Shown here: positions 4,017-40,671 of the stretch, piece by piece
Numbering within the stretch: the first letter of the stretch is position 1
Layout: each line of letters starts with the position of its first letter
Source: a virus
Strand: one strand, 5' to 3'
Length of the DNA stretch: 43,937 bases
Virus genome (UHGV): UHGV-0384622
Made by a program: the position numbers and the translations under genes
Notes under the pieces: model-generated
Told to the model about the DNA's origin: nothing
Database searches by the model: none
Seen by the model: only the letters and a program-made list of their open reading frames with translations

Positions 4017-4147
4017 TACATACCCGAAGATATGCACTATAATTCGCACCTATATTGTACCATCTTCGGGGCGGCTTTGCAAGATATTTGCGGAGCTGTA
4101 TTTTTTATACCTATTTTTAGGAAAATCAATTGAAGGAGGAAAGAGAA

Positions 4148-5218
4148 GTGACTACAAAAGCCCCGAAAAAGAAAAAAGGAGAACTACCATCCAAAAATAT
4201 CCGTGTACAATTATATTTATACACGGATGAAAAAGGTAAACGGCATTACAAAAGCTTTGTTGCCCCATCACGCAAAATCGCACAAGAAATGGCTGCCAGA
4301 TGGAAATTAGATATGAAGGATAAGCCCATAGAGAAATACAATGAACCGGAAGAGGACGAAGAAGATATTACAGTCAATGATGCTATTGAACGCTATTTAA
4401 GCGCCAAGAGCGGTGTTTTAAGCCCTTCTACGCTTAGAGGGTACACTGGTCTGCAAAGACAGTATTTCGGCGGCGCATTTGGTCAAAAAAAGCTTTCAGA
4501 ACTGACAAGTCCATCTGTGCAAATATGGGTAAGTAATTTAGCTGCAAAAAAACTATCTCCAAAGACGGTAAGAAATGCCTATGGTCTGTTATCTCCAACA
4601 CTGGAAATGTTTGCACCCGAATTAACTTTAAACGTTAAACTGCCTCAAAAAAAACGTCCTAACTTATATTGCCCCAATGACAATGATATTAAAAAGTTGC
4701 TGGATGCTATTAAAGGCACTGATTTGGAGATAGCTGTATTATTGGCTGCGTTTGGTCCACTTAGGAGAGGGGAGATAAGCGCTCTAACTGATAAGGACGT
4801 GGATGGAAAAATTATCCATGTAAGAGATAATATGGTCAAGGGGCCAGACAATCAATGGTATATCAAACAGCCAAAGACAGATGACAGTACAAGGGATGTA
4901 GAAATGCCCGCATTTGTAATTGACCGGATATCTAAAAGAAAAGGAAAGCTGGTTGACATGAACCCGGATTACATCACACACCGATTCGGGCGAGTACTCA
5001 AAAAAATTGATATACCACACTTCAGATTCCATGACCTACGGCATTATGCTGCATCCATTATGCACGCTATAGGGATACCGGACCAATATATTTTGCAGCG
5101 GGGAGGATGGGCCAGCGACAATATTATGAAAACCGTATACAGAAATGCGATTGACTCTGAAACCGTCCGGCAAAATAAAAAAATTAATAAGCACTTTGAA
5201 AAGTTGAACAGCATGTAA
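4148..5218 (+). CDS. int: tyrosine site-specific integrase
   Basis: GTG start with AAGGAGG RBS (alternative TTG at 4130); catalytic-region motifs LRRGE, HDLRH, C-terminal VYRNA; lies beside an attP-like region. Confidence 0.85.
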   Translation: MTTKAPKKKKGELPSKNIRVQLYLYTDEKGKRHYKSFVAPSRKIAQEMAARWKLDMKDKPIEKYNEPEEDEEDITVNDAIERYLSAKSGVLSPSTLRGYTGLQRQYFGGAFGQKKLSELTSPSVQIWVSNLAAKKLSPKTVRNAYGLLSPTLEMFAPELTLNVKLPQKKRPNLYCPNDNDIKKLLDAIKGTDLEIAVLLAAFGPLRRGEISALTDKDVDGKIIHVRDNMVKGPDNQWYIKQPKTDDSTRDVEMPAFVIDRISKRKGKLVDMNPDYITHRFGRVLKKIDIPHFRFHDLRHYAASIMHAIGIPDQYILQRGGWASDNIMKTVYRNAIDSETVRQNKKINKHFEKLNSM

Positions 5219-5506
5219 TAAAATAGCATATTTTTCGTGTTGCATCGTGTTGCATATATCATAAAAAATATAATATAATCCTCCGTAATAGGCAGAGGAA
5301 GTGATGTTTAAAAACATGAAAAAACCTTGTAAATACGTTGTTTTTCCCGTATCTACAAGGTTTTATGGAAAAGCTGCTGACGGGAATCGGACCCGTAAAA
5401 TACAACGGTTTTATGCGGTTTGTAGGCTCCGTGTTGCATTTCGTGTTGCATATTTCCGAAGATGGTACTTTATTTATAGAAGCGTCAGAGTCAATTTCTG
5501 GTGCTT
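5219..5506. other. candidate attP: four direct CGTGTTGCAT arm-type repeats flanking an imperfect inverted repeat core
   Basis: CGTGTTGCAT at 5236-5245, 5246-5255, 5430-5439, 5442-5451; inverted repeat ccttgtaaatacg (5325-5337) / cgtatctacaagg (5348-5360); sits between int and the endolysin. Confidence 0.4.
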
Positions 5507-22981: not shown

Positions 22982-23205
22982 CATCCACATCCAGCATTGC
23001 ATCCACAATTAGATGCATATGGATATGGCGCCGGAACCGTATAAGCCGGTACAGGCTGTGGCTGACGAAGCTGTGCAACGATGGTGTTGCCAACTGCATC
23101 AATAAAGCCGTTCTGGGCTGTCTGGCTTGCCTGGAACCTAAGGGTCTGATTCTCTGCCTGGAGGCTGGAGTCCCGCTCCATTTGCACCGTTGCCGCCGAA
23201 GCCAT
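22978..23205 (-). CDS. hypothetical protein, Pro/Tyr-rich with C-terminal CGCNAGCGC
   Basis: GGGGAGG RBS before ATG at 23205 (MASAATVQ). Confidence 0.3.
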   Translation of the reverse strand: MASAATVQMERDSSLQAENQTLRFQASQTAQNGFIDAVGNTIVAQLRQPQPVPAYTVPAPYPYASNCGCNAGCGC

Positions 23206-23338
23206 TGCCCCAGCCTCCCCCGGCGAACAGGAAGAGAACGATAATCCAAATCCAATCGCCCCACATACCATCACCATTTCTGTTATTTCCGTTTCCTGTA
23301 GCGGCAGCAATGTCCGCTAAAGAGTAACCACTTTCCAT
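23138..23338 (-). CDS. Gly-rich tiny-TM protein (YjcZ-like sporulation-associated family pattern)
   Basis: GDGMWGDWIWIIVLFLFAGGGWGNGFGGNG: a hydrophobic core flanked by Gly/aromatic residues. Confidence 0.35.
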   Translation of the reverse strand: MESGYSLADIAAATGNGNNRNGDGMWGDWIWIIVLFLFAGGGWGNGFGGNGANGAGLQPPGRESDP

Positions 23339-27865: not shown

Positions 27866-28054
27866 TCACCTAATTTTTTCTGCTATTTTTTCGCCTATCA
27901 AAAACGCAAGATTAAATGTGCCAAAGATTAGAAGAAGAAATAGTGTCAACGGCCAGAAGAACAATGGAAGCAAAGAAGGCTTTCCGTTTACTTGCATGGC
28001 CCCAGAAACAATAGTGCCAATTAACAAATAAATTATAATCAATATATAAATCAT
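27866..28054 (-). CDS. small 2-TM membrane protein
   Basis: 62 aa, strongly hydrophobic. Confidence 0.4.
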   Translation of the reverse strand: MIYILIIIYLLIGTIVSGAMQVNGKPSLLPLFFWPLTLFLLLIFGTFNLAFLIGEKIAEKIR

Positions 28055-29292
28055 GCGCTGTTTCCTCTCATCATTGATAGCGGGCTTGTAGCATAACGGA
28101 GAGCATCAATCCAGTGGTCATTTCCATCTGGGTAATCCGCTATTACTTCTCCGTTTCCGTCTACCTCATGCTCATACTCTATTATTTCCTTGTATGCTCG
28201 TGGCGTGCGGGCCGGGTCTATAACGATTGTACGGCACTGCAACCACTCAAAGGTATATTTCCTGCTTCCTGGTGTTACAATGGCTTTACGTGCCGGTAAA
28301 CCAGCGTCACGGAAGTCTATAATGCTTTCTTCTTCATCCACACCGCAATAGATTGTATAATCATCGTACCCAGCCGTCTGTATATCCTCAGCCATCTTGC
28401 TGTTACGAATTTTACAGCCACCCATTTCATCAAGCAACACAACCAATTCTTTGTTTGGTATGTAAGCGGCCCGGATAAAGGCTTTTGGGTCCGGGAACCA
28501 GCCCCAGTCTTGCCCCTGGTATATGCTTTGGTATTTCTGAATTTCCTCGTCTGTGATTGTCCGTACATCCAGCATATCAAATATATTTGTACCAAGTCCA
28601 ACCGGCAAGCCTAAATACTCGTGGTTGTATGCCCGCTCATTGGTGGCTTTAAGATGTTCTGCGCGTTCAATAAACATTTCTCCCAGCCATTCAACCGGTA
28701 CAGAACGGTAATCGCTTTTATGCCTATACGCGCTATCGTCTGGAGTATTTACATACTGATTAGCCCAGTTGCTTTGGCTGATGGGTGGGTTGAAGGATTT
28801 AAACACAACAAACTTGCTTCCACCACGCAACACTGATTGTTCAACAGTTCGTATTTCTTCCGGTCCTGCAAATTCGTCCAGTTCCTCGAACCATAGATAT
28901 TTAAAGTATCCTTTACTGGCTTTTATAGATTTTGTTTTCTTTGCCTTGTCAAGTCCACGGAATATTATCTTTTGCCCTGTTGGCTTATAAACGAATCGGT
29001 ATGGGCTTGTACGTGATTCCCATAAATCAGTTACCCCTAATGCATCTATGGCCCACTGTATCTGCTCAAAGACTGATTCTCCGATGGTCACCGCATATTT
29101 ACGAAACACTACCGCATTAGCCTCTGGGTCATCCATCATACCCAAAACAATCTCCACAGATATGAAAGAGGACTTCGTGGAACCTCGCCCACCGTACAGG
29201 TCATAATATGTATGATTACCTTCGAGTATATCCCAATGAACATCATAGAAAGAAGGGGCGATTACATCAGTCAGATTTATTATGTCACTCAT
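28051..29292 (-). CDS. terminase large subunit
   Basis: 413 aa; Walker A-like YGGRGSTKS; acidic nuclease-domain residues; preceded by TerS. Confidence 0.85.
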   Translation of the reverse strand: MSDIINLTDVIAPSFYDVHWDILEGNHTYYDLYGGRGSTKSSFISVEIVLGMMDDPEANAVVFRKYAVTIGESVFEQIQWAIDALGVTDLWESRTSPYRFVYKPTGQKIIFRGLDKAKKTKSIKASKGYFKYLWFEELDEFAGPEEIRTVEQSVLRGGSKFVVFKSFNPPISQSNWANQYVNTPDDSAYRHKSDYRSVPVEWLGEMFIERAEHLKATNERAYNHEYLGLPVGLGTNIFDMLDVRTITDEEIQKYQSIYQGQDWGWFPDPKAFIRAAYIPNKELVVLLDEMGGCKIRNSKMAEDIQTAGYDDYTIYCGVDEEESIIDFRDAGLPARKAIVTPGSRKYTFEWLQCRTIVIDPARTPRAYKEIIEYEHEVDGNGEVIADYPDGNDHWIDALRYATSPLSMMRGNSA

Positions 29293-30550: not shown

Positions 30551-31597
30551 CTACACATTAACTCTTTCTCTTACTGAACGAAGAGTGCGCGGGTTAGACT
30601 GTGCATAATAACGTGCCGTAACTCCTGGGTCTGCATGGCCCATAATTTCCTGTATGGTCCCAATATCAACTCCTCTGTTTTTCAGATTCATTCCCAGCGT
30701 CTTGCGTGACTTATGCGGATATACCCGACATGTTAGACCGGCTCTTTTCCTTATGGTTTTCAATATCGCCCGAAATCCACAAGTAGTCATCTTTCCATAC
30801 GGTTTTCTGGAGCGTGGGAACATATATGGACAATCATCTTTCCTGCTGTCAAAATACAGGCCGTAGTAATGACGCGCATCATCATCCAGATAGATAGTCC
30901 GATATCTTCCGCCTTTCTCTCCCTGTATCCAAATATCGCCGGTTCTCATGTCTATCTGGTCCAGAGTTATTTCTGCAATCTCCCCTATCCTGGCTCCAGT
31001 ACTTCGAAGTACCTCCAGCAAGGCCCTCTCGCGGATATTTTTGCACGCATCCCTTAATCTTGCAGATTCTTCCGGGCTGTAATAATCAATTGGTTTAATT
31101 GGTACTTTCTTGGCAGGTATTGGTTCCACCGGATTATCTGTAATAAGCTTTTCAAGGCGCATCCATGTAAAGAATGCTGATAGAAAACGGCGTTCATTGT
31201 TGTAGGTACTGGGCTGATTTTTCTTTCCTCCGCTGGACACATTCCTAATTTCGTATCGGGATAAATACCAATCAATATCTGTGGTATCCATCTGGTCCAA
31301 TGATTTTGTGTTTATTTCTGTCAACAATCTTCGTATGGCATTCAGATAGTTTTGTTTGGTTCCTCTTGCTAAATCGCGTTTTTTAATCAGGAATAATTGT
31401 ATTATGTACTGATTCCGCTGGCTTATATCATCCTTTCTTTCTGCCGGAAGAGTAGTTATTTCCTCCATATTTACCCTTACCAATTCCTGCTGCATTACAT
31501 TTTGCAGAATGTTAAGAGTCTGCTGCTCCACAATATATAAGGACATGGCTACCAGTACATTGTTAATTATTTCAGCTTTAATTGTCTGTGTACTCAT
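30551..31597 (-). CDS. second tyrosine recombinase (XerC/D-like or phage integrase family)
   Basis: GGAGG RBS before ATG at 31597; motifs RSTGARIGE, HKSRKT, GHADPGVTARYY (R..HxxR..H..Y). Confidence 0.8.
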   Translation of the reverse strand: MSTQTIKAEIINNVLVAMSLYIVEQQTLNILQNVMQQELVRVNMEEITTLPAERKDDISQRNQYIIQLFLIKKRDLARGTKQNYLNAIRRLLTEINTKSLDQMDTTDIDWYLSRYEIRNVSSGGKKNQPSTYNNERRFLSAFFTWMRLEKLITDNPVEPIPAKKVPIKPIDYYSPEESARLRDACKNIRERALLEVLRSTGARIGEIAEITLDQIDMRTGDIWIQGEKGGRYRTIYLDDDARHYYGLYFDSRKDDCPYMFPRSRKPYGKMTTCGFRAILKTIRKRAGLTCRVYPHKSRKTLGMNLKNRGVDIGTIQEIMGHADPGVTARYYAQSNPRTLRSVRERVNV

Positions 31598-31755
31598 AAT
31601 TATATCCTCCTCATTCGTATTGATTTTCACGTCTGAGTGAGATATAATATACTCAGACGTATTTACGAGAGCGGTGGAATCATCTTGGCGGGTGACCATC
31701 GCTCAGTTTTCATTCTGTGCATATATGTGTTCCTTTATCTATTTTTCTTTAATCT

Positions 31756-34157: not shown

Positions 34158-34212
34158 TCGCTACAGTCCTTTCTCAAATCCTAATTTTCATCGTTTAATA
34201 CAATATTTCCTT

Positions 34213-34938
34213 TCAGTCATTTATCCAGCCTATCCCCTGGCTAAGTAATTGGCAGGCTATCGTACAGTCTTCCATAACCTCCAGGTCCATCCTTCCACGG
34301 TTCGGGTCTAACTCGTCCAGATATACTCCCCCGATACAACTATGCCCTATCTCCCTCTCCTGCCTAGCCCGGCGTTCAAATACCTCCGGGAAATCAATCC
34401 GAATCTTATTCCAGTATCCCATGCCGCCTTTTACGCAACCAATGCAGTTGTTGTTTGGATACCCCATGTCATACATTACTGGGCGTTTCAGCCCCAGTTT
34501 ATCGGCTATCCCGTGGCACTCTGCTTTTGTCAATCCATTCTCAATCAACGGGAACTCATGGTCGTAGTCAGAAAGCGCTTTAACAACTGCGTCTGCTCTG
34601 TGCATCTCATTCACATCATAACCCCACACATATGTATGATGGTCTGGATTCGCTGCCTCCCAGTCTCTGCGTACCTGTTTTTTCAACCATTTAGTGCAGG
34701 GTGCTCCAAAAGCTGTGTTTATGCATCTGGTATTTTCAATTACATCATCCACATCTTTGTATTTATCTGATTGTATAGGCTCAATCTTTCTTCCCAAAAT
34801 CGCCTCGCAATCCTTCAAAAATCTCAGACTATCAGGATGTTGATTTTCGACATGAGTGTAAATAATTTTATCAATATCCTTAGCCAAGTAACACGCCACA
34901 AAAGACGATACTCCGGTGCTAAACCAACATACTTTCAT
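34213..34938 (-). CDS. PAPS-reductase-family PP-loop protein with a degenerate ATP-binding loop
   Basis: WFSTGVSS in place of SGGxDS; ECHGI (similar to the ECGLH motif) and NNCIGC. Confidence 0.55.
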   Translation of the reverse strand: MKVCWFSTGVSSFVACYLAKDIDKIIYTHVENQHPDSLRFLKDCEAILGRKIEPIQSDKYKDVDDVIENTRCINTAFGAPCTKWLKKQVRRDWEAANPDHHTYVWGYDVNEMHRADAVVKALSDYDHEFPLIENGLTKAECHGIADKLGLKRPVMYDMGYPNNNCIGCVKGGMGYWNKIRIDFPEVFERRARQEREIGHSCIGGVYLDELDPNRGRMDLEVMEDCTIACQLLSQGIGWIND

Positions 34939-35094
34939 AGGTACCTCCTAAAATGAATAATTACTATTATCGCTCACCAGCGCTAATGTATTGACTGGTA
35001 AATCCTGTAATTTTACCATTCAGAAAGTGATCACTTTACCCGGCCAGGACTGTTTTACTTTCTATTTCTTTAATTGCTTAAATAGCGATTTTGG

Positions 35095-35397
35095 TTAACA
35101 AATTGGCGACTGAAACGAGCATATTCCATCCAGATAACACCGGTTCGCAAACTCCTCTGCCTCCCCGCTCTCCAGTGCTTTGATTGCCATCTTATATGCC
35201 TGTATCTGCTTTTCTGCGTCTGCCCGGAATGCCAACTTGTCTTGTATCGTGTTTCTGGCAATTCCCATACGCACCATCTGTTCCCATCCACCATCCGTAA
35301 TTTGGTGGTGGTATGTATTAATGTGTTCCTGCAATATGCCTATGGCTTCTCTTTTGTCAATTGTCATACTTTTCCTTCCCTCGCTCCCCATAATCAT
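35095..35397 (-). CDS. hypothetical protein
   Basis: ORF; likely start MTIDKRE. Confidence 0.4.
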   Translation of the reverse strand: MIMGSEGRKSMTIDKREAIGILQEHINTYHHQITDGGWEQMVRMGIARNTIQDKLAFRADAEKQIQAYKMAIKALESGEAEEFANRCYLDGICSFQSPIC

Positions 35398-35719
35398 GTT
35401 CTTTTTCCTCTTCCCAGATTACCTTAATAACCTCCACTTTATCGAGCGGAATGTAGAATGATCCTTGAGCCTCCCACTCTCCAGCCTTCCACTGCTGTTC
35501 AAACTCTTCCAAACTATCAGCCAGCAAAAATCCGGCTTCCTCTTCTGTCTGGTACATAGTTCGCATCATTGCATCGTCCGATTCATCCGGCCAGCTGAAC
35601 AGATGATACATCTCGTAGTTGTCATAATCCCATAACGTTAACGCTACTACATACCCATCTATCGGCCATCCAGTGCTGTTTACCCGTCCTTCAACGAGTT
35701 TTGGTCTATATCCCTTCAT
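35357..35719 (-). CDS. hypothetical acidic protein
   Basis: 120 aa ORF. Confidence 0.4.
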   Translation of the reverse strand: MKGYRPKLVEGRVNSTGWPIDGYVVALTLWDYDNYEMYHLFSWPDESDDAMMRTMYQTEEEAGFLLADSLEEFEQQWKAGEWEAQGSFYIPLDKVEVIKVIWEEEKEHDYGERGKEKYDN

Positions 35720-36021
35720 CCCTCTGCCTCCTTATATGGATCCGGTGCTGGATGCCATGCAATCACATCAAGAAGTCCTTCATCATCAACCTTCCACCAT
35801 TCTTCTCTAACATCATCATAATATCCAACTTCAACATATCCACGTCTAACCGTAACGTGTACTATCTCTCCACACGGAGGAAGGTCCCTTTCAACCGGAA
35901 CCCACTTATTCTCTGTTTTTGCGGTTGGAATTTTTCTTATATCCTCGATTATGTACTCTTCTCCCTCATATCTTGCAATAAGCAGTTTTTTTACATCATC
36001 CGAATCAATTAGTCTTCCCAT
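35716..36021 (-). CDS. DUF551-like phage protein
   Basis: C-terminal VIAWHPAPDPY similar to the DUF551 pattern (V..WMPLPEP). Confidence 0.45.
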   Translation of the reverse strand: MGRLIDSDDVKKLLIARYEGEEYIIEDIRKIPTAKTENKWVPVERDLPPCGEIVHVTVRRGYVEVGYYDDVREEWWKVDDEGLLDVIAWHPAPDPYKEAEG

Positions 36022-36046
36022 TCTGCTTCCTCCTCTAAATCTGTGT

Positions 36047-36208
36047 TTATTCTTTTACCTCCCACCAAGAACAATCTAAATGACTATTTTTCCAATCCTC
36101 ATACGAATCTTCAACTTCTTCCTGCGATGCATCATCATCAAATTCAAATTCTTCTTCATGGGTTGCCCCGGCAAATCCTGTCCCCATATAAAAGTGATAT
36201 TTTTTCAT
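36047..36208 (-). CDS. small acidic protein (53 aa; below the track cutoff); identical copy at 37180..37341
   Basis: AAAGGAG 8 nt before ATG; MKKYHFYMGTGFAGATHEEEFEFDDDASQEEVEDSYEDWKNSHLDCSWWEVKE. Confidence 0.35.
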   Translation of the reverse strand: MKKYHFYMGTGFAGATHEEEFEFDDDASQEEVEDSYEDWKNSHLDCSWWEVKE

Positions 36209-36391
36209 TCAGTTTCTTCTCCTTTCAGAAATGGGCATTTTGATTACTTGGACGCCTGGAATGATCCGGGCATATTTCCGTCCTATCATAGGCTGGACGT
36301 AGATATGCTTGTGTCATGGGCGATGGATGTTTTTCCATATCTTTTATTGCTGCCATTCTTTGGCGTTCTGAATTTTCGCTATATTGATTTT

Positions 36392-36646
36392 TTATTTTAT
36401 TTTCCGGCATTCAAGCACATCTCCCTTCTCAAAAACGTAATGACATCCAGGTATTGTAATCGTCCTTGGGCATTCATCCGTATAATCAATCAGTCCCTTA
36501 TCTCTCATGTCACGTAAATATCCCCATATGGTAGAACTAGATGTATATCCAACTCCATCCCCAATCTCCCTGGTAGTAGGAGGATAGTTATGGATCACCA
36601 TGTAGGACTTAATATAGTCAAGTATACGCCTATGTGCTTCCTTCAT
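36392..36646 (-). CDS. LexA DNA-binding-domain-only protein (no S24 peptidase domain); identical copy at 37525..37779
   Basis: YPPTTREIGDGVGYTSSSTIWGYLRDMRDKGLI closely resembles the LexA N-terminal winged helix. Confidence 0.6.
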   Translation of the reverse strand: MKEAHRRILDYIKSYMVIHNYPPTTREIGDGVGYTSSSTIWGYLRDMRDKGLIDYTDECPRTITIPGCHYVFEKGDVLECRKIK

Positions 36647-37158
36647 CTGTCCCCTCCCCTACCCAGTCCTGTACCTGTTTTAGCATCAATGCATCGTAGT
36701 CCGTATCTCGCTGGTCAAAATTATGAAACTGGTTCTTGCTTACAGTAGCCTTCTTATCTGGCTTCACAACTGGTTCCCTGTAGTCTGTTTTGAGATAATC
36801 GTCAAACGAGGTATCTGGTCCAAAAAATGTTGCTGCATGTTTTACAAACTGCTCCTGGGTACCTAATAACTCACACTCTCTGGCATATCTTTTAACTGCT
36901 GTCTCCAGCTCGTCCTCTGAAAAACCATCCTTTAGGCGGGCATTGTACGCTTTATATGCTTTCGCCTTTTCTTTTTTTCTCGGGTATACCTTCCAGATTT
37001 CCTCAAAACGCACACAATATTTTTTATTACTATCATTTACATTATCATTATCATATACATTATCATTATCATGTTTTTTTGCTTCGGTTTGCTTTTCAAA
37101 AAAACCATTTGCTTTTTTTGACTCCGAATTTTTATCAAACGAAGCACTTCCTTTTGGC
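36630..37158 (-). pseudogene. duplicated C-terminal fragment of the replisome organizer gene (no ATG; internal GTG at 37013)
   Basis: identical to the 3' part of 37763..38530; an in-frame TAA lies 10 codons upstream of the junction. Confidence 0.45.
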
Positions 37159-38291
37159 CTTCCTCCTCTAAATCTGTGTTTATTCTTTTACCTCCCACCA
37201 AGAACAATCTAAATGACTATTTTTCCAATCCTCATACGAATCTTCAACTTCTTCCTGCGATGCATCATCATCAAATTCAAATTCTTCTTCATGGGTTGCC
37301 CCGGCAAATCCTGTCCCCATATAAAAGTGATATTTTTTCATTCAGTTTCTTCTCCTTTCAGAAATGGGCATTTTGATTACTTGGACGCCTGGAATGATCC
37401 GGGCATATTTCCGTCCTATCATAGGCTGGACGTAGATATGCTTGTGTCATGGGCGATGGATGTTTTTCCATATCTTTTATTGCTGCCATTCTTTGGCGTT
37501 CTGAATTTTCGCTATATTGATTTTTTATTTTATTTTCCGGCATTCAAGCACATCTCCCTTCTCAAAAACGTAATGACATCCAGGTATTGTAATCGTCCTT
37601 GGGCATTCATCCGTATAATCAATCAGTCCCTTATCTCTCATGTCACGTAAATATCCCCATATGGTAGAACTAGATGTATATCCAACTCCATCCCCAATCT
37701 CCCTGGTAGTAGGAGGATAGTTATGGATCACCATGTAGGACTTAATATAGTCAAGTATACGCCTATGTGCTTCCTTCATCTGTCCCCTCCCCTACCCAGT
37801 CCTGTACCTGTTTTAGCATCAATGCATCGTAGTCCGTATCTCGCTGGTCAAAATTATGAAACTGGTTCTTGCTTACAGTAGCCTTCTTATCTGGCTTCAC
37901 AACTGGTTCCCTGTAGTCTGTTTTGAGATAATCGTCAAACGAGGTATCTGGTCCAAAAAATGTTGCTGCATGTTTTACAAACTGCTCCTGGGTACCTAAT
38001 AACTCACACTCTCTGGCATATCTTTTAACTGCTGTCTCCAGCTCGTCCTCTGAAAAACCATCCTTTAGGCGGGCATTGTACGCTTTATATGCTTTCGCCT
38101 TTTCTTTTTTTCTCGGGTATACCTTCCAGATTTCCTCAAAACGCACACAATATTTTTTATTACTATCATTTACATTATCATTATCATATACATTATCATT
38201 ATCATGTTTTTTTGCTTCGGTTTGCTTTTCAAAAAAACCATTTGCTTTTTTTGACTCCGAATTTTTATCAAACGAAGCACTTCCTTTTGGC
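37159..38291. repeat. tandem direct repeat, copy 2; followed by a third CTTCCTCC at 38292-38299 (8-bp microhomology)
   Basis: as above. Confidence 0.85.
37525..37779 (-). CDS. LexA DNA-binding-domain-only protein (upstream copy)
   Basis: identical to 36392..36646. Confidence 0.6.
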   Translation of the reverse strand: MKEAHRRILDYIKSYMVIHNYPPTTREIGDGVGYTSSSTIWGYLRDMRDKGLIDYTDECPRTITIPGCHYVFEKGDVLECRKIK

Positions 38292-38530
38292 CTTCCTCCA
38301 AGTTTCCCAGCTTCTCTTCTGGATTCTACCATCTTCTGGTACTTCTGATTATCTCTATCAAGCTGAGCCTTGATGAAGCTAAAAGCCATTTGTGTCATTC
38401 CATCCATCTGTGGAAGTTCTTTATCCGCTGCATATAACATGATAGCAGTAAATAGATTTCCTCTCTGCTCCATGTTCAATAATAAAATTTGGTCAATATT
38501 TGCTGTATACATTACAAAACTTTCTCTCAT
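37763..38530 (-). CDS. phage replisome organizer / replication initiator-like protein
   Basis: N-terminal NIDQILLLNMEQRGNLFTAIMLYAADK... typical of replisome-organizer N-terminal domains; 255 aa. Confidence 0.55.
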   Translation of the reverse strand: MRESFVMYTANIDQILLLNMEQRGNLFTAIMLYAADKELPQMDGMTQMAFSFIKAQLDRDNQKYQKMVESRREAGKLGGRPKGSASFDKNSESKKANGFFEKQTEAKKHDNDNVYDNDNVNDSNKKYCVRFEEIWKVYPRKKEKAKAYKAYNARLKDGFSEDELETAVKRYARECELLGTQEQFVKHAATFFGPDTSFDDYLKTDYREPVVKPDKKATVSKNQFHNFDQRDTDYDALMLKQVQDWVGEGTDEGST

Positions 38531-38910
38531 AATCCTGCACCAAACATACTCAATTGCCCAGGAAATCCGGTATCTTTCCTTTTAGTGTTCTTATTTTGTT
38601 TTATAAAGAGCTGTGCGCCACGCTCTGCCGCCTTTATGCTCTCTATCCGGCTATTCTGGCTTTCCATCCATTTATAGGCTTCTTGCCGTCCCTGTGCATC
38701 GTCACGGGGTACATAGTAACCTTTGCCTGTTGTCAAGGAAAGAATCACTTTATCATGCCTTAACATCTCTATCGCGGTTCTTACATCTCTGTCCTTTTCT
38801 CCTGTCTTGGATACTAATTCATCCCGGTTCAATGCATTCCCTTTCCCTACAAGGAGTGCATTATATACCCTTGCTTGAACATCTTCACTAACAGTTCGCT
38901 TATTCTTCAA
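38527..38910 (-). CDS. hypothetical winged-helix DNA-binding protein (TTG start, AAAGGAGG RBS)
   Basis: 127 aa; overlaps the replisome organizer start. Confidence 0.4.
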   Translation of the reverse strand: MKNKRTVSEDVQARVYNALLVGKGNALNRDELVSKTGEKDRDVRTAIEMLRHDKVILSLTTGKGYYVPRDDAQGRQEAYKWMESQNSRIESIKAAERGAQLFIKQNKNTKRKDTGFPGQLSMFGAGL

Positions 38911-39056
38911 ATAATCCCTCCTTTCGGGCCGGGTAAAGGAGGTTTGATAGGTCCCGGCCCAGGGTCAGAAAGTATATCATGACATATCAGCATTCTGACC
39001 AGTACTCATTTCCGTTGTATGTATCATCCCACAAGGGGGAATAGATACCAAAAATG

Positions 39057-39503
39057 TCAGTTTAAATGAACTACTTCTGCCTTTTTCACAGGCTGGCTAC
39101 AATATTCCACCGTTACATTCCGCTGATATGAAAACACACTGCCACAGCAAGGACACTCACACTCGTCTTCATCATCGTCAGCTTCCCAACTGTCACCATT
39201 TTCATATCCACAATATGGACAAGTAATCTGTCCTGTGTAATCTTTATCTTCTGGCTCCTCGCCATCAATAAAAACTTTCTGCAACTTTAATTTCTTAACA
39301 TATGCCGTATGATACCTCCCCCCTTTTCCGGCTAGGGAGGTGACGCCATATGCAGTGTTGTCTATGATTAGCGTGTCCCCAATGTTGATTTCCTTGTCGG
39401 TCTCTATAATGGGCTTTATCCCATTATCTTCAGGAGTAAGTCCGTTCATGCTGAAATCCCACGAACGCTTACTACCCAAATCTGCATAATCAAATATTTT
39501 CAT
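39057..39503 (-). CDS. hypothetical protein with C-terminal Cys cluster (CPYCG...CECPCCG)
   Basis: 148 aa ORF. Confidence 0.4.
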   Translation of the reverse strand: MKIFDYADLGSKRSWDFSMNGLTPEDNGIKPIIETDKEINIGDTLIIDNTAYGVTSLAGKGGRYHTAYVKKLKLQKVFIDGEEPEDKDYTGQITCPYCGYENGDSWEADDDEDECECPCCGSVFSYQRNVTVEYCSQPVKKAEVVHLN

Positions 39504-39534
39504 CTTCCACCTCTGTTAAATCTTAATTTTGCTT

Positions 39535-40671
39535 TCAAGGCATCATCTCCAGGAAACCCTTTATGGTCATCTGGCCACCGTTCTTCGCCTCTGCCTGTTT
39601 CATCTTCTTAAAATCGTTATATCTCTGTCTGTACCTATAGCTGTCACCAAATATATTCCATGCAGCCTTAACAACATTCGGTTCGTATGCTCTTATCTTT
39701 TCCAAATCCGCTACCGCTTTAGAGGAAATACTACACCCACAACATCCTGTACGTGTCAACCCATACACCTCGTAAGCGTCCGAATATCTTATCTCATACC
39801 GCTCTTTATACCATGCCTTATCTGCGTCCGACACATAATACAATGGCTTTAATCGGAACTGTCCGCTGCTCGTTTCTGAAAAACACATCGTTCCATTTGC
39901 ATCTTCAGATTTTGGCACGGAGCGCATGCCTCCCTCGTCCCGGCGTTCTCCTGTAATAACCATTTCATATCCCGCTTGTACCTTATGGGCTATCTGTTTC
40001 TTGCAGTAGTCACAGCATTTTGCGCTGATTTTAAAATCGCACGGATTTTCTTTCATAAACTCGTATAGGTATTTCGATGAATCAATCACTAACTGTATAT
40101 TTGGCCTTGGTTCCCCATCTCGGTTACAACAACACAGAAAATTGATTCCCTGTTCTGATTTCGGATACCGCTCTCGCAATTCCTCTCTCTTTGCCATTTT
40201 ATTCTCCGCATTGTCATATTCTTCCCTGATAGAAAGTGGAAGCTCTTTCTTCTGCACCGTTTCCATTGCGCTTGATACAATTTTTGAAATGAATGGGATA
40301 CCATATTCCCTCGTAGACTGTACAATGTTTTTCTTAGGTCTGTACTCCGTTATCTCAACACCATATTTATTTTTAACATCTATTACATGGTCTTTTGTCG
40401 CCTTCATTTCAAGCCCAGTATTGAAAAAACAGTATTTCACCTCAGGTAGGCCGAACAACGTTCTTGTCCGTTCTATCAAATCGAGCATAATATCACTGTC
40501 ACTTCCACCGGAATACGAACATATTGCATTTGGATGCTCTTTTAATCTCCTTGCAATAATCGACTGTATTGCCTGAAATTTACTCGGCGCATCAAAATCA
40601 GCGTACGCCGGGCGTTCAGTGTATACTCTTGAATAATATACTTCCTTACTATTTTTATTTGTCTGTCTCAT
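39535..40671 (-). CDS. PAPS-reductase-family PP-loop ATP pyrophosphatase with C-terminal Cys-rich (DUF3440-like) extension
   Basis: canonical SYSGGSDS PP-loop; CCCNRDG, CCDYCKK, TGCCGCS clusters; the ATG is preceded by A9 instead of an SD. Confidence 0.65.
   Translation of the reverse strand: MRQTNKNSKEVYYSRVYTERPAYADFDAPSKFQAIQSIIARRLKEHPNAICSYSGGSDSDIMLDLIERTRTLFGLPEVKYCFFNTGLEMKATKDHVIDVKNKYGVEITEYRPKKNIVQSTREYGIPFISKIVSSAMETVQKKELPLSIREEYDNAENKMAKREELRERYPKSEQGINFLCCCNRDGEPRPNIQLVIDSSKYLYEFMKENPCDFKISAKCCDYCKKQIAHKVQAGYEMVITGERRDEGGMRSVPKSEDANGTMCFSETSSGQFRLKPLYYVSDADKAWYKERYEIRYSDAYEVYGLTRTGCCGCSISSKAVADLEKIRAYEPNVVKAAWNIFGDSYRYRQRYNDFKKMKQAEAKNGGQMTIKGFLEMMP

Follow-up and report, generated by a model that had tools for sequence, protein, structure and literature searches.

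An exact 1133-bp tandem duplication in the replication module of a temperate gut phage: a probably genuine, very recent event at an 8-bp microhomology

When two adjacent segments of a phage genome agree in every letter, are we looking at a very recent duplication or at a product of the assembly? The question is raised by UHGV-0384622, an assembled virus genome of 43,937 nt (by "the window" we mean this whole stretch), in which part of the early replication operon stands twice: most of the gene for a replisome organizer, followed by three small genes, one of which encodes a stand-alone LexA-like DNA-binding protein. The original prediction, read from the letters alone, had named just these two possibilities, which proved to be the right frame for the problem, and the indirect evidence described here favours the junction being present in the reads. 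We consider it probable that the duplication is genuine and very recent, and that it arose as a microhomology-mediated segmental tandem duplication. Events of this kind are familiar; this one carries no demonstrated function and is private to this assembly.

The duplicated unit and its joint

Comparison of the window with itself places the two units head-to-tail, 1133 nt each and with 0 mismatches between them, and the run of identity at a period of 1133 is 1141 nt long (36026-37166 versus 37159-38299). All genes of the duplicated region are on the minus strand. The octamer CTTCCTCC, which reads GGAGGAAG on the coding strand, stands at both outer edges of the repeat and once at the joint, so the earlier description of a perfect 1133-bp duplication with the octamer again at 38292 is confirmed to the letter. 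The elements of this arrangement are as follows.

37159..38291, minus strand: repeat unit, promoter-proximal copy, first transcribed; holds organizer codons 80-255, the LexA-like gene, a 61-aa open reading frame (ORF) and the DUF7167 gene
36026..37158, minus strand: repeat unit, promoter-distal copy; holds a C-terminal fragment of the organizer gene and second copies of the three small genes
36026..36033, minus strand: microhomology GGAGGAAG, left parental site; Shine-Dalgarno sequence of a 101-aa gene
37159..37166, minus strand: microhomology GGAGGAAG, novel junction, present once (self-comparison)
38292..38299, minus strand: microhomology GGAGGAAG, right parental site; organizer codons G78 G79 R80, at the end of the DUF6291 domain

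Two adjacent head-to-tail copies, with the octamer at both parental edges and only once where the copies meet, make this a tandem duplication as it stands in the assembly. The joint itself reads GATTTAGAGGAGGAAGGCCAAAAGG, and self-BLAST and a repeat search found no other long repeat in the window. For a random pair of breakpoints in the de-duplicated genome the probability of at least 8 nt of flanking identity is 2.2e-4, which argues that the microhomology is not a chance by-product; an 8-bp overlap is what polymerase errors or recombination between short repeats characteristically leave behind. The octamer is itself over-represented, with 7 occurrences of GGAGGAAG in the window where 1.5 are expected, because it resembles a Shine-Dalgarno sequence, and the nearest pair of such sites on the same strand is the pair used by the duplication. 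At the left edge it serves the 101-aa gene as ribosome-binding site, 4 nt ahead of its ATG (ggaggaagcagaATG). The two sites are thus those that had been predicted, one in the Shine-Dalgarno region of the downstream gene (36026) and the other in codons inside the organizer gene (G78-G79-R80). The DUF551 label that the downstream gene had been given did not hold, as its 101-aa product has no Pfam PF04448 match even at E <= 10.

If the duplication is genuine, a DNA end or nascent strand at one GGAGGAAG would have re-paired with the identical octamer 1133 bp away during replication or recombination, whether by RecA-independent slippage, by template switching, or by unequal exchange between sister or concatemeric copies. 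The resulting order would be A-U-U-D, with U the unit and a single octamer at the joint. Such an event would preserve the essential organizer gene and add an untranslatable C-terminal fragment of it, while the LexA-like gene, the 61-aa ORF and the acidic DUF7167 gene would each be doubled and the genome would gain a second origin-like GATAATGTA array. Two identical copies of 1.1 kb should soon be collapsed by homologous recombination, so that the duplication would be young and probably polymorphic in the population.

Evidence from relatives and reads

If the event is so young, one might expect close relatives to carry the parental form, and this is what we see. Sister genomes had been suggested as a check on the duplication, and every other assembly of the module has a single copy. 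The novel junction string is found in 0 of 103 related loci; it is also absent from IMG/VR. The exact LexA-like protein is recorded in 236 blocks of public assemblies, and in 10 of the 10 places listed for it the module of organizer, LexA-like gene, 61-aa ORF, 53-aa gene and 101-aa gene is single-copy. At least 15 independent contigs, from Logan, ENA, NCBI and IMG/VR, carry the module once, several of them at 100% identity. The most telling is the Logan contig SRR30479998_3165, which is 100% identical to window positions 43779-37159 followed by 37166-30392 and holds one unit only: it is the exact unduplicated parental arrangement. Others with a single copy, 99.7-100% identical, are found in Logan, in ENA (metaSPAdes and SPIRE scaffolds), in an NCBI metagenome-assembled genome and in IMG/VR, and more distant IMG/VR relatives at 70-87% identity are single-copy too. 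No other kb-scale tandem repeat was found in the relatives, a 26-nt string common to the junction and the parental left edge is absent from JGI metagenome contigs, and megablast of window positions 35000-39600 against GenBank phages gave no match. A 127-aa product with a GTG start, predicted from the organizer fragment, is recorded once, in a 1053-nt contig (L048) whose start lies within the unit and which has the parental left junction but not the novel one. As the junction is absent elsewhere and relatives are otherwise identical over more than 12 kb, the duplication appears to be private to this assembly and to have arisen since its last common ancestor with these genomes.

A second microhomology-flanked rearrangement is found in this lineage. 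At about 23165 (23160-23175, minus strand) the window has a frameshifting deletion of 340 nt, flanked by a 5-bp TCCAG microhomology and absent from nearly all relatives, which truncates a conserved 234-aa gene to 66 aa (ORF 23138-23338). The 66-aa product is recorded in only three contigs (ERR8081659_162, ERR8083624_362 and ERZ28598810 scaffold_2625), and because these come from three different samples the deletion is a real rearrangement, a second illegitimate-recombination event in the lineage. It is smaller than the gain from the duplication, and nothing ties it to compensation. Another relative, ERR11027644_555 (L067/L084/L094), otherwise 100% identical, lacks window positions 34188-36045 with the genes for proteins of 101, 120, 100 and 241 aa. 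Its deletion starts just behind the stop codon of the DUF7167 gene, at a distance of 20 nt from the left breakpoint of the duplication. The short intergenic stretch after the DUF7167 gene is a rearrangement hot spot.

One of the contigs that share the 340-nt deletion bears on the reads themselves. Logan graphs are built at k=31 from k-mers seen at least 2 times, and each 31-mer appears once per accession (PMC12424806). A Logan contig can therefore never show the duplication; it either runs through the unit or breaks at its edges. ERR8081659_162 (30,342 nt), which carries the deletion as a marker of the same strain, is 100% identical and gap-free to window positions 33338-5714, and two independent anchors give the same map (window position = 36056 minus contig position), which puts the first base of the contig at window position 36055. 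This is 30 nt, or k-1, before the first base past the unit (36025), and the first 31-mer to include 36025 spans 36055-36025. A contig start at this position implies that the 31-mer ending with GGAGGAAG at 36026 has two successors in the ERR8081659 reads, and the simplest reading is that these reads contain the junction at appreciable depth. A bubble caused by a single-nucleotide polymorphism (SNP) would re-converge after 31 k-mers, and the contig runs on for 30 kb; the deletion variant ERR11027644_555 diverges at 36046/36045 and would place the break at 36075, not 36055.

Several points weigh against a genuine duplication. The assembled sequence alone shows two copies, and the support from reads is indirect. 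The start of ERR8081659_162 is extrapolated over its first 2717 nt on the assumption of colinearity, and ERR8081659 may be the window's own source data, hence not independent at the level of the library. A stand-alone unit contig of 1141 nt, which the same logic predicts, was not found via its expected partial product 'GGRPKGS...'. And the duplication is seen in no other assembly, which fits a young event and a sample-specific artefact equally well.

Such an artefact of the library or the assembly is the explanation that competes best. An in-vitro chimera, formed by template switching at GGAGGAAG during multiple displacement amplification (MDA) or the polymerase chain reaction (PCR), would have created a back-edge in the graph that was traversed once, the real genomes being single-copy throughout. 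This would account for a duplication confined to one assembly when other assemblies of the module are single-copy, template switching in vitro also uses microhomology, and perfect identity is the expected product of traversing a loop; a literature search on the run accession gave no hit. We nevertheless find it rather unlikely. A chimeric back-edge supported by few reads is normally removed by SPAdes-like simplification, yet this one appears to break the ERR8081659 Logan contig; overlap or k-mer assemblers cannot themselves join at 8 bp; and the microhomology-flanked 340-nt deletion, real in three samples, is a product of the same lineage. The copy number of two is itself putative, and may be the minimal traversal of a loop. 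For curation this calls for some caution, as a duplication of this sort is invisible in a graph-based catalogue like Logan, and an assembler that resolves loops prints a copy number that is arbitrary.

The replication module and what its duplication would change

Transcription of the region runs from a 127-aa gene through the 255-aa organizer gene, the overlapping 84-aa LexA-like gene, the 61-aa ORF and the 53-aa DUF7167 gene to the junction, and past it through the organizer fragment (from codon 78 on) and the second copies of the three small genes to the 101-aa gene. The genes are these.

37763..38530, minus strand: intact replisome-organizer gene, 255 aa; DUF6291 N-terminal domain at aa 4-82 (Pfam, E = 1.9e-30)
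36630..37158, minus strand: organizer fragment, codons 81-255; second copy, C-terminal
37525..37779, minus strand: 84-aa stand-alone LexA DNA-binding (winged-helix) gene, copy 1; PF01726 at aa 3-62, E = 3.9e-14
36392..36646, minus strand: LexA-like gene, copy 2, from the identity of the units
37358..37543, minus strand: 61-aa ORF, copy 1; called as a gene in all relatives
36225..36410, minus strand: 61-aa ORF, copy 2, from the identity of the units
37180..37341, minus strand: 53-aa acidic DUF7167 gene, copy 1; PF23768, E = 2.2e-12
36047..36208, minus strand: DUF7167 gene, copy 2, from the identity of the units
35716..36021, minus strand: 101-aa gene, directly downstream and unduplicated; its Shine-Dalgarno sequence is one of the microhomology sites

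By sequence the organizer belongs to replication-initiator families. Its C-terminal part matches phrog_270 (7e-24) and phrog_1701 (7e-13), and also phrogs 26426 and 9327, families annotated as replication initiator, primosomal protein or DnaD-like loader; no sequence match was found in the PDB. No helicase or helicase loader was recognised beside it in the window. The prediction that the organizer stays intact (38530-37763) and that the extra unit adds a promoter-less C-terminal fragment agrees with what we find, as there is no promoter-like site in the unit. Upstream of the joint the reading frame of the fragment is closed after 8 codons by a TAA, and its first possible start (ATG, GTG or TTG) is a GTG at 37013 without a Shine-Dalgarno sequence; the fragment is for these reasons probably untranslated.

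The second copies of the LexA-like gene, the 61-aa ORF and the acidic 53-aa ORF, which had likewise been predicted, are all present in the unit. The three small genes keep their own Shine-Dalgarno sequences in each copy, that of the first LexA-like copy being strong (ggggagggg), and the unit has neither a promoter-like nor a terminator-like site on the minus strand, so the second copies should be co-transcribed with the first and their dosage would be roughly doubled. The LexA-like protein also matches LexA in the PDB (8s7g, E = 6.5e-6). It has the N-terminal winged-helix DNA-binding domain of the LexA repressor and lacks the S24 peptidase and dimerisation domain (Pfam gives no S24 match in the 84 aa), and therefore cannot cleave itself in the SOS response. 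Judged by sequence, this replication module has a stand-alone winged-helix protein of LexA type among its conserved members; in relatives it is fixed there, after the organizer and, in some, after a DnaC/IstB-like loader. Two loci, L093 (13569-14613) and L098 (13810-14824), have the organizer, then an IstB/DnaC-like loader, then an 83-aa LexA_DNA_bind gene. The 53-aa DUF7167 protein is acidic, with 16 D+E against 4 K+R. No family match was found for the 61-aa ORF in Pfam or PHROGs, and the 101-aa gene matches only PHROGs of unknown function.

The unit also holds an AT-rich array of short repeats, in the linker between the two domains of the organizer, and this has been copied along with the genes.

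38157..38205, minus strand: GATAATGTA(A/T)A array, putative iteron origin, copy 1; AT-rich (21% GC), in the organizer linker
37024..37072, minus strand: GATAATGTA(A/T)A array, copy 2, created by the duplication (identity of the units)

The motif occurs 4 times in the window, always in one of the two linker copies, where 0.13 occurrences are expected. Across 1.3 Mb of related loci there are 139 copies of it in arrays of 2-5, on the organizer strand and in 56 loci, against 22 isolated copies. It is seen in the organizer genes of L001, L005, L010, L011, L013, L024 and others, and the array is retained even in organizers at about 36% protein identity, its copy number varying from 2 to 5 among relatives. 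We think that the GATAATGTA array is probably an iteron-type phage origin, embedded in the gene of the DUF6291 organizer. The same repeats code for a conserved DNV peptide repeat, so selection on the array at the level of DNA is not proven. Origins inside initiator genes have precedents: the ori of phage lambda lies inside gene O, and SPP1 has oriL inside gene 38 and a second origin, oriR, elsewhere. These are likewise AT-rich stretches with short direct repeats, which in the window stand between two organizer domains. SPP1 has its two origins naturally, while the window genome has two array copies after a duplication, and the origin role of the array, unlike that of the lambda and SPP1 sites, is putative. 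A probable origin is thereby flagged in a gene of the DUF6291 family, which is without known function or structure.

Could the duplication have been selected? A dosage benefit of the DUF7167 or LexA-like protein against host defence, of the kind known for T4 tifA, altered replication control, or a step toward an origin-bearing mini-replicon might each favour it, and we hold such selection to be quite improbable; PADLOC gave no defence-system match for the duplicated proteins. Were it selected, the 1.13-kb unit could in the extreme case also be a circle that parasitises the organizer in the manner of lambda-dv.

A circle appears in another alternative as well, in which the sample contained a mixture of single-copy phage genomes and a separate 1133-bp circle, either a pop-out product or a lambda-dv-like mini-replicon supplied with the organizer in trans. 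This mixture has the same de Bruijn graph as the tandem (A-U-D plus a U that closes on itself), so the topology in ERR8081659 cannot separate the two, and the unit does hold the conserved AT-rich GATAATGTA array, which is its best origin candidate. We regard it as very unlikely, as there is no direct evidence of a circle, the unit has neither a complete organizer gene nor a promoter, and the window's assembler put both copies into one closed path of 43.9 kb. An extremely unlikely account is a computational concatenation, in which the two ends of a circular contig with an untrimmed terminal overlap (a direct terminal repeat) were joined and the genome then rotated: the window is a closed circle, which implies a circularisation step of some sort, but a terminal-overlap join has arbitrary ends (P ~2e-4 for an 8-bp extension of identity), whereas here the repeat boundaries coincide with a meaningful pair of motifs, 5.6 kb separate the repeat from the window's cut point, and the Logan contig of the same strain breaks at the unit boundary.

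Known amplifications and the wider phage genome

A genuine microhomology-mediated duplication, the reading we prefer, would place this phage beside well-studied cases. Segmental amplifications in phage T4 (dmd-tifA, rII and others) are bounded by microhomologies of 6-10 bp, a single copy of which remains between the repeats (Srikant, Guegler and Laub 2022, eLife, PMC9391042); that paper also cites Kumagai et al. 1993 and Wu et al. 1991 for T4 amplifications. Under the constraint of headful packaging, these amplifications go together with deletions that are likewise flanked by microhomology (PMC9391042). The window resembles these in its head-to-tail copies, its short microhomology boundary (8 bp), the single copy of it at the joint and the doubling of whole small genes, and also in having a microhomology-flanked deletion elsewhere in the same genome (340 nt, TCCAG). 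It differs in that the T4 amplifications were experimentally selected, reached many copies and were verified by PCR and coverage, whereas here two copies are known from the assembly of an uncultured temperate phage. Phage lambda also forms spontaneous tandem duplications. Those of bacteria go back to Anderson and Roth 1977 and 1981, as cited in PMC9391042. Like the duplication in the window, the bacterial and lambda duplications arise between short repeats, are recent and unstable, collapse by homologous recombination and are polymorphic in populations; they were shown genetically, whereas the present event is inferred from one assembly. If real, it offers a natural snapshot, from a gut sample, of the raw material for the evolution of gene dosage in phages before the copies diverge, with the exact unduplicated form available from another sample.

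Physically, the extra DNA asks little of the phage. Relatives align unbroken across window position 1/43937, and the window is thus a closed circular genome; it would measure 42,804 bp with a single copy, and the duplication adds 2.6% to reach 43.9 kb, which is unremarkable as relatives span about 41.9-46.1 kb. The phage is temperate, siphovirus-like and of gut Firmicutes, about 42.8 kb without the duplication, and its gene content includes an integrase, an HTH/Peptidase_M78 repressor module, an AntA-type anti-repressor, a Terminase_3 large terminase and a 1061-aa tape-measure protein. Distant homologues of the organizer are found in Enterocloster and Dorea genomes.

The rest of the genome shows some further traces of mobility. 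An attP lies near 5396 in the window. Some relatives also run through attP, and others are integrated prophages that adjoin host genes for lactate dehydrogenase (Ldh) and a T2SSE ATPase (L093, L095 and L099 compared with L094, L096, L097 and L100). There are two tyrosine-recombinase genes in the window (30551-31699 and 4130-5218), one of which adjoins attP; the second recombinase (348 aa, Phage_int_SAM_4 plus Phage_integrase) lies in the middle of the genome, just upstream of those for the terminase. The replication module has a PAPS-reductase-like gene on either side, at 39535-40671 (378 aa) and 34213-34938 (241 aa). The 378-aa protein recurs with an identical sequence in 319 blocks, among them phages whose replication and structural modules are quite different (L057-L065), and its gene appears to be a highly mobile cassette. 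The terL gene (28051-29292) is intact in the window; L066, L077 and L078 carry an insertion of about 854 nt at about 28884-28889, which encodes a NUMOD4/HNH_3 endonuclease, splits the large terminase into parts of 152 and 259 aa, and looks like a homing-endonuclease or intron-type insertion. Finally, three related IMG/VR loci have tandem arrays of a 24-nt period with 91-94% identity (L006 27-391, L012 1100-1325 and L021 1-326).

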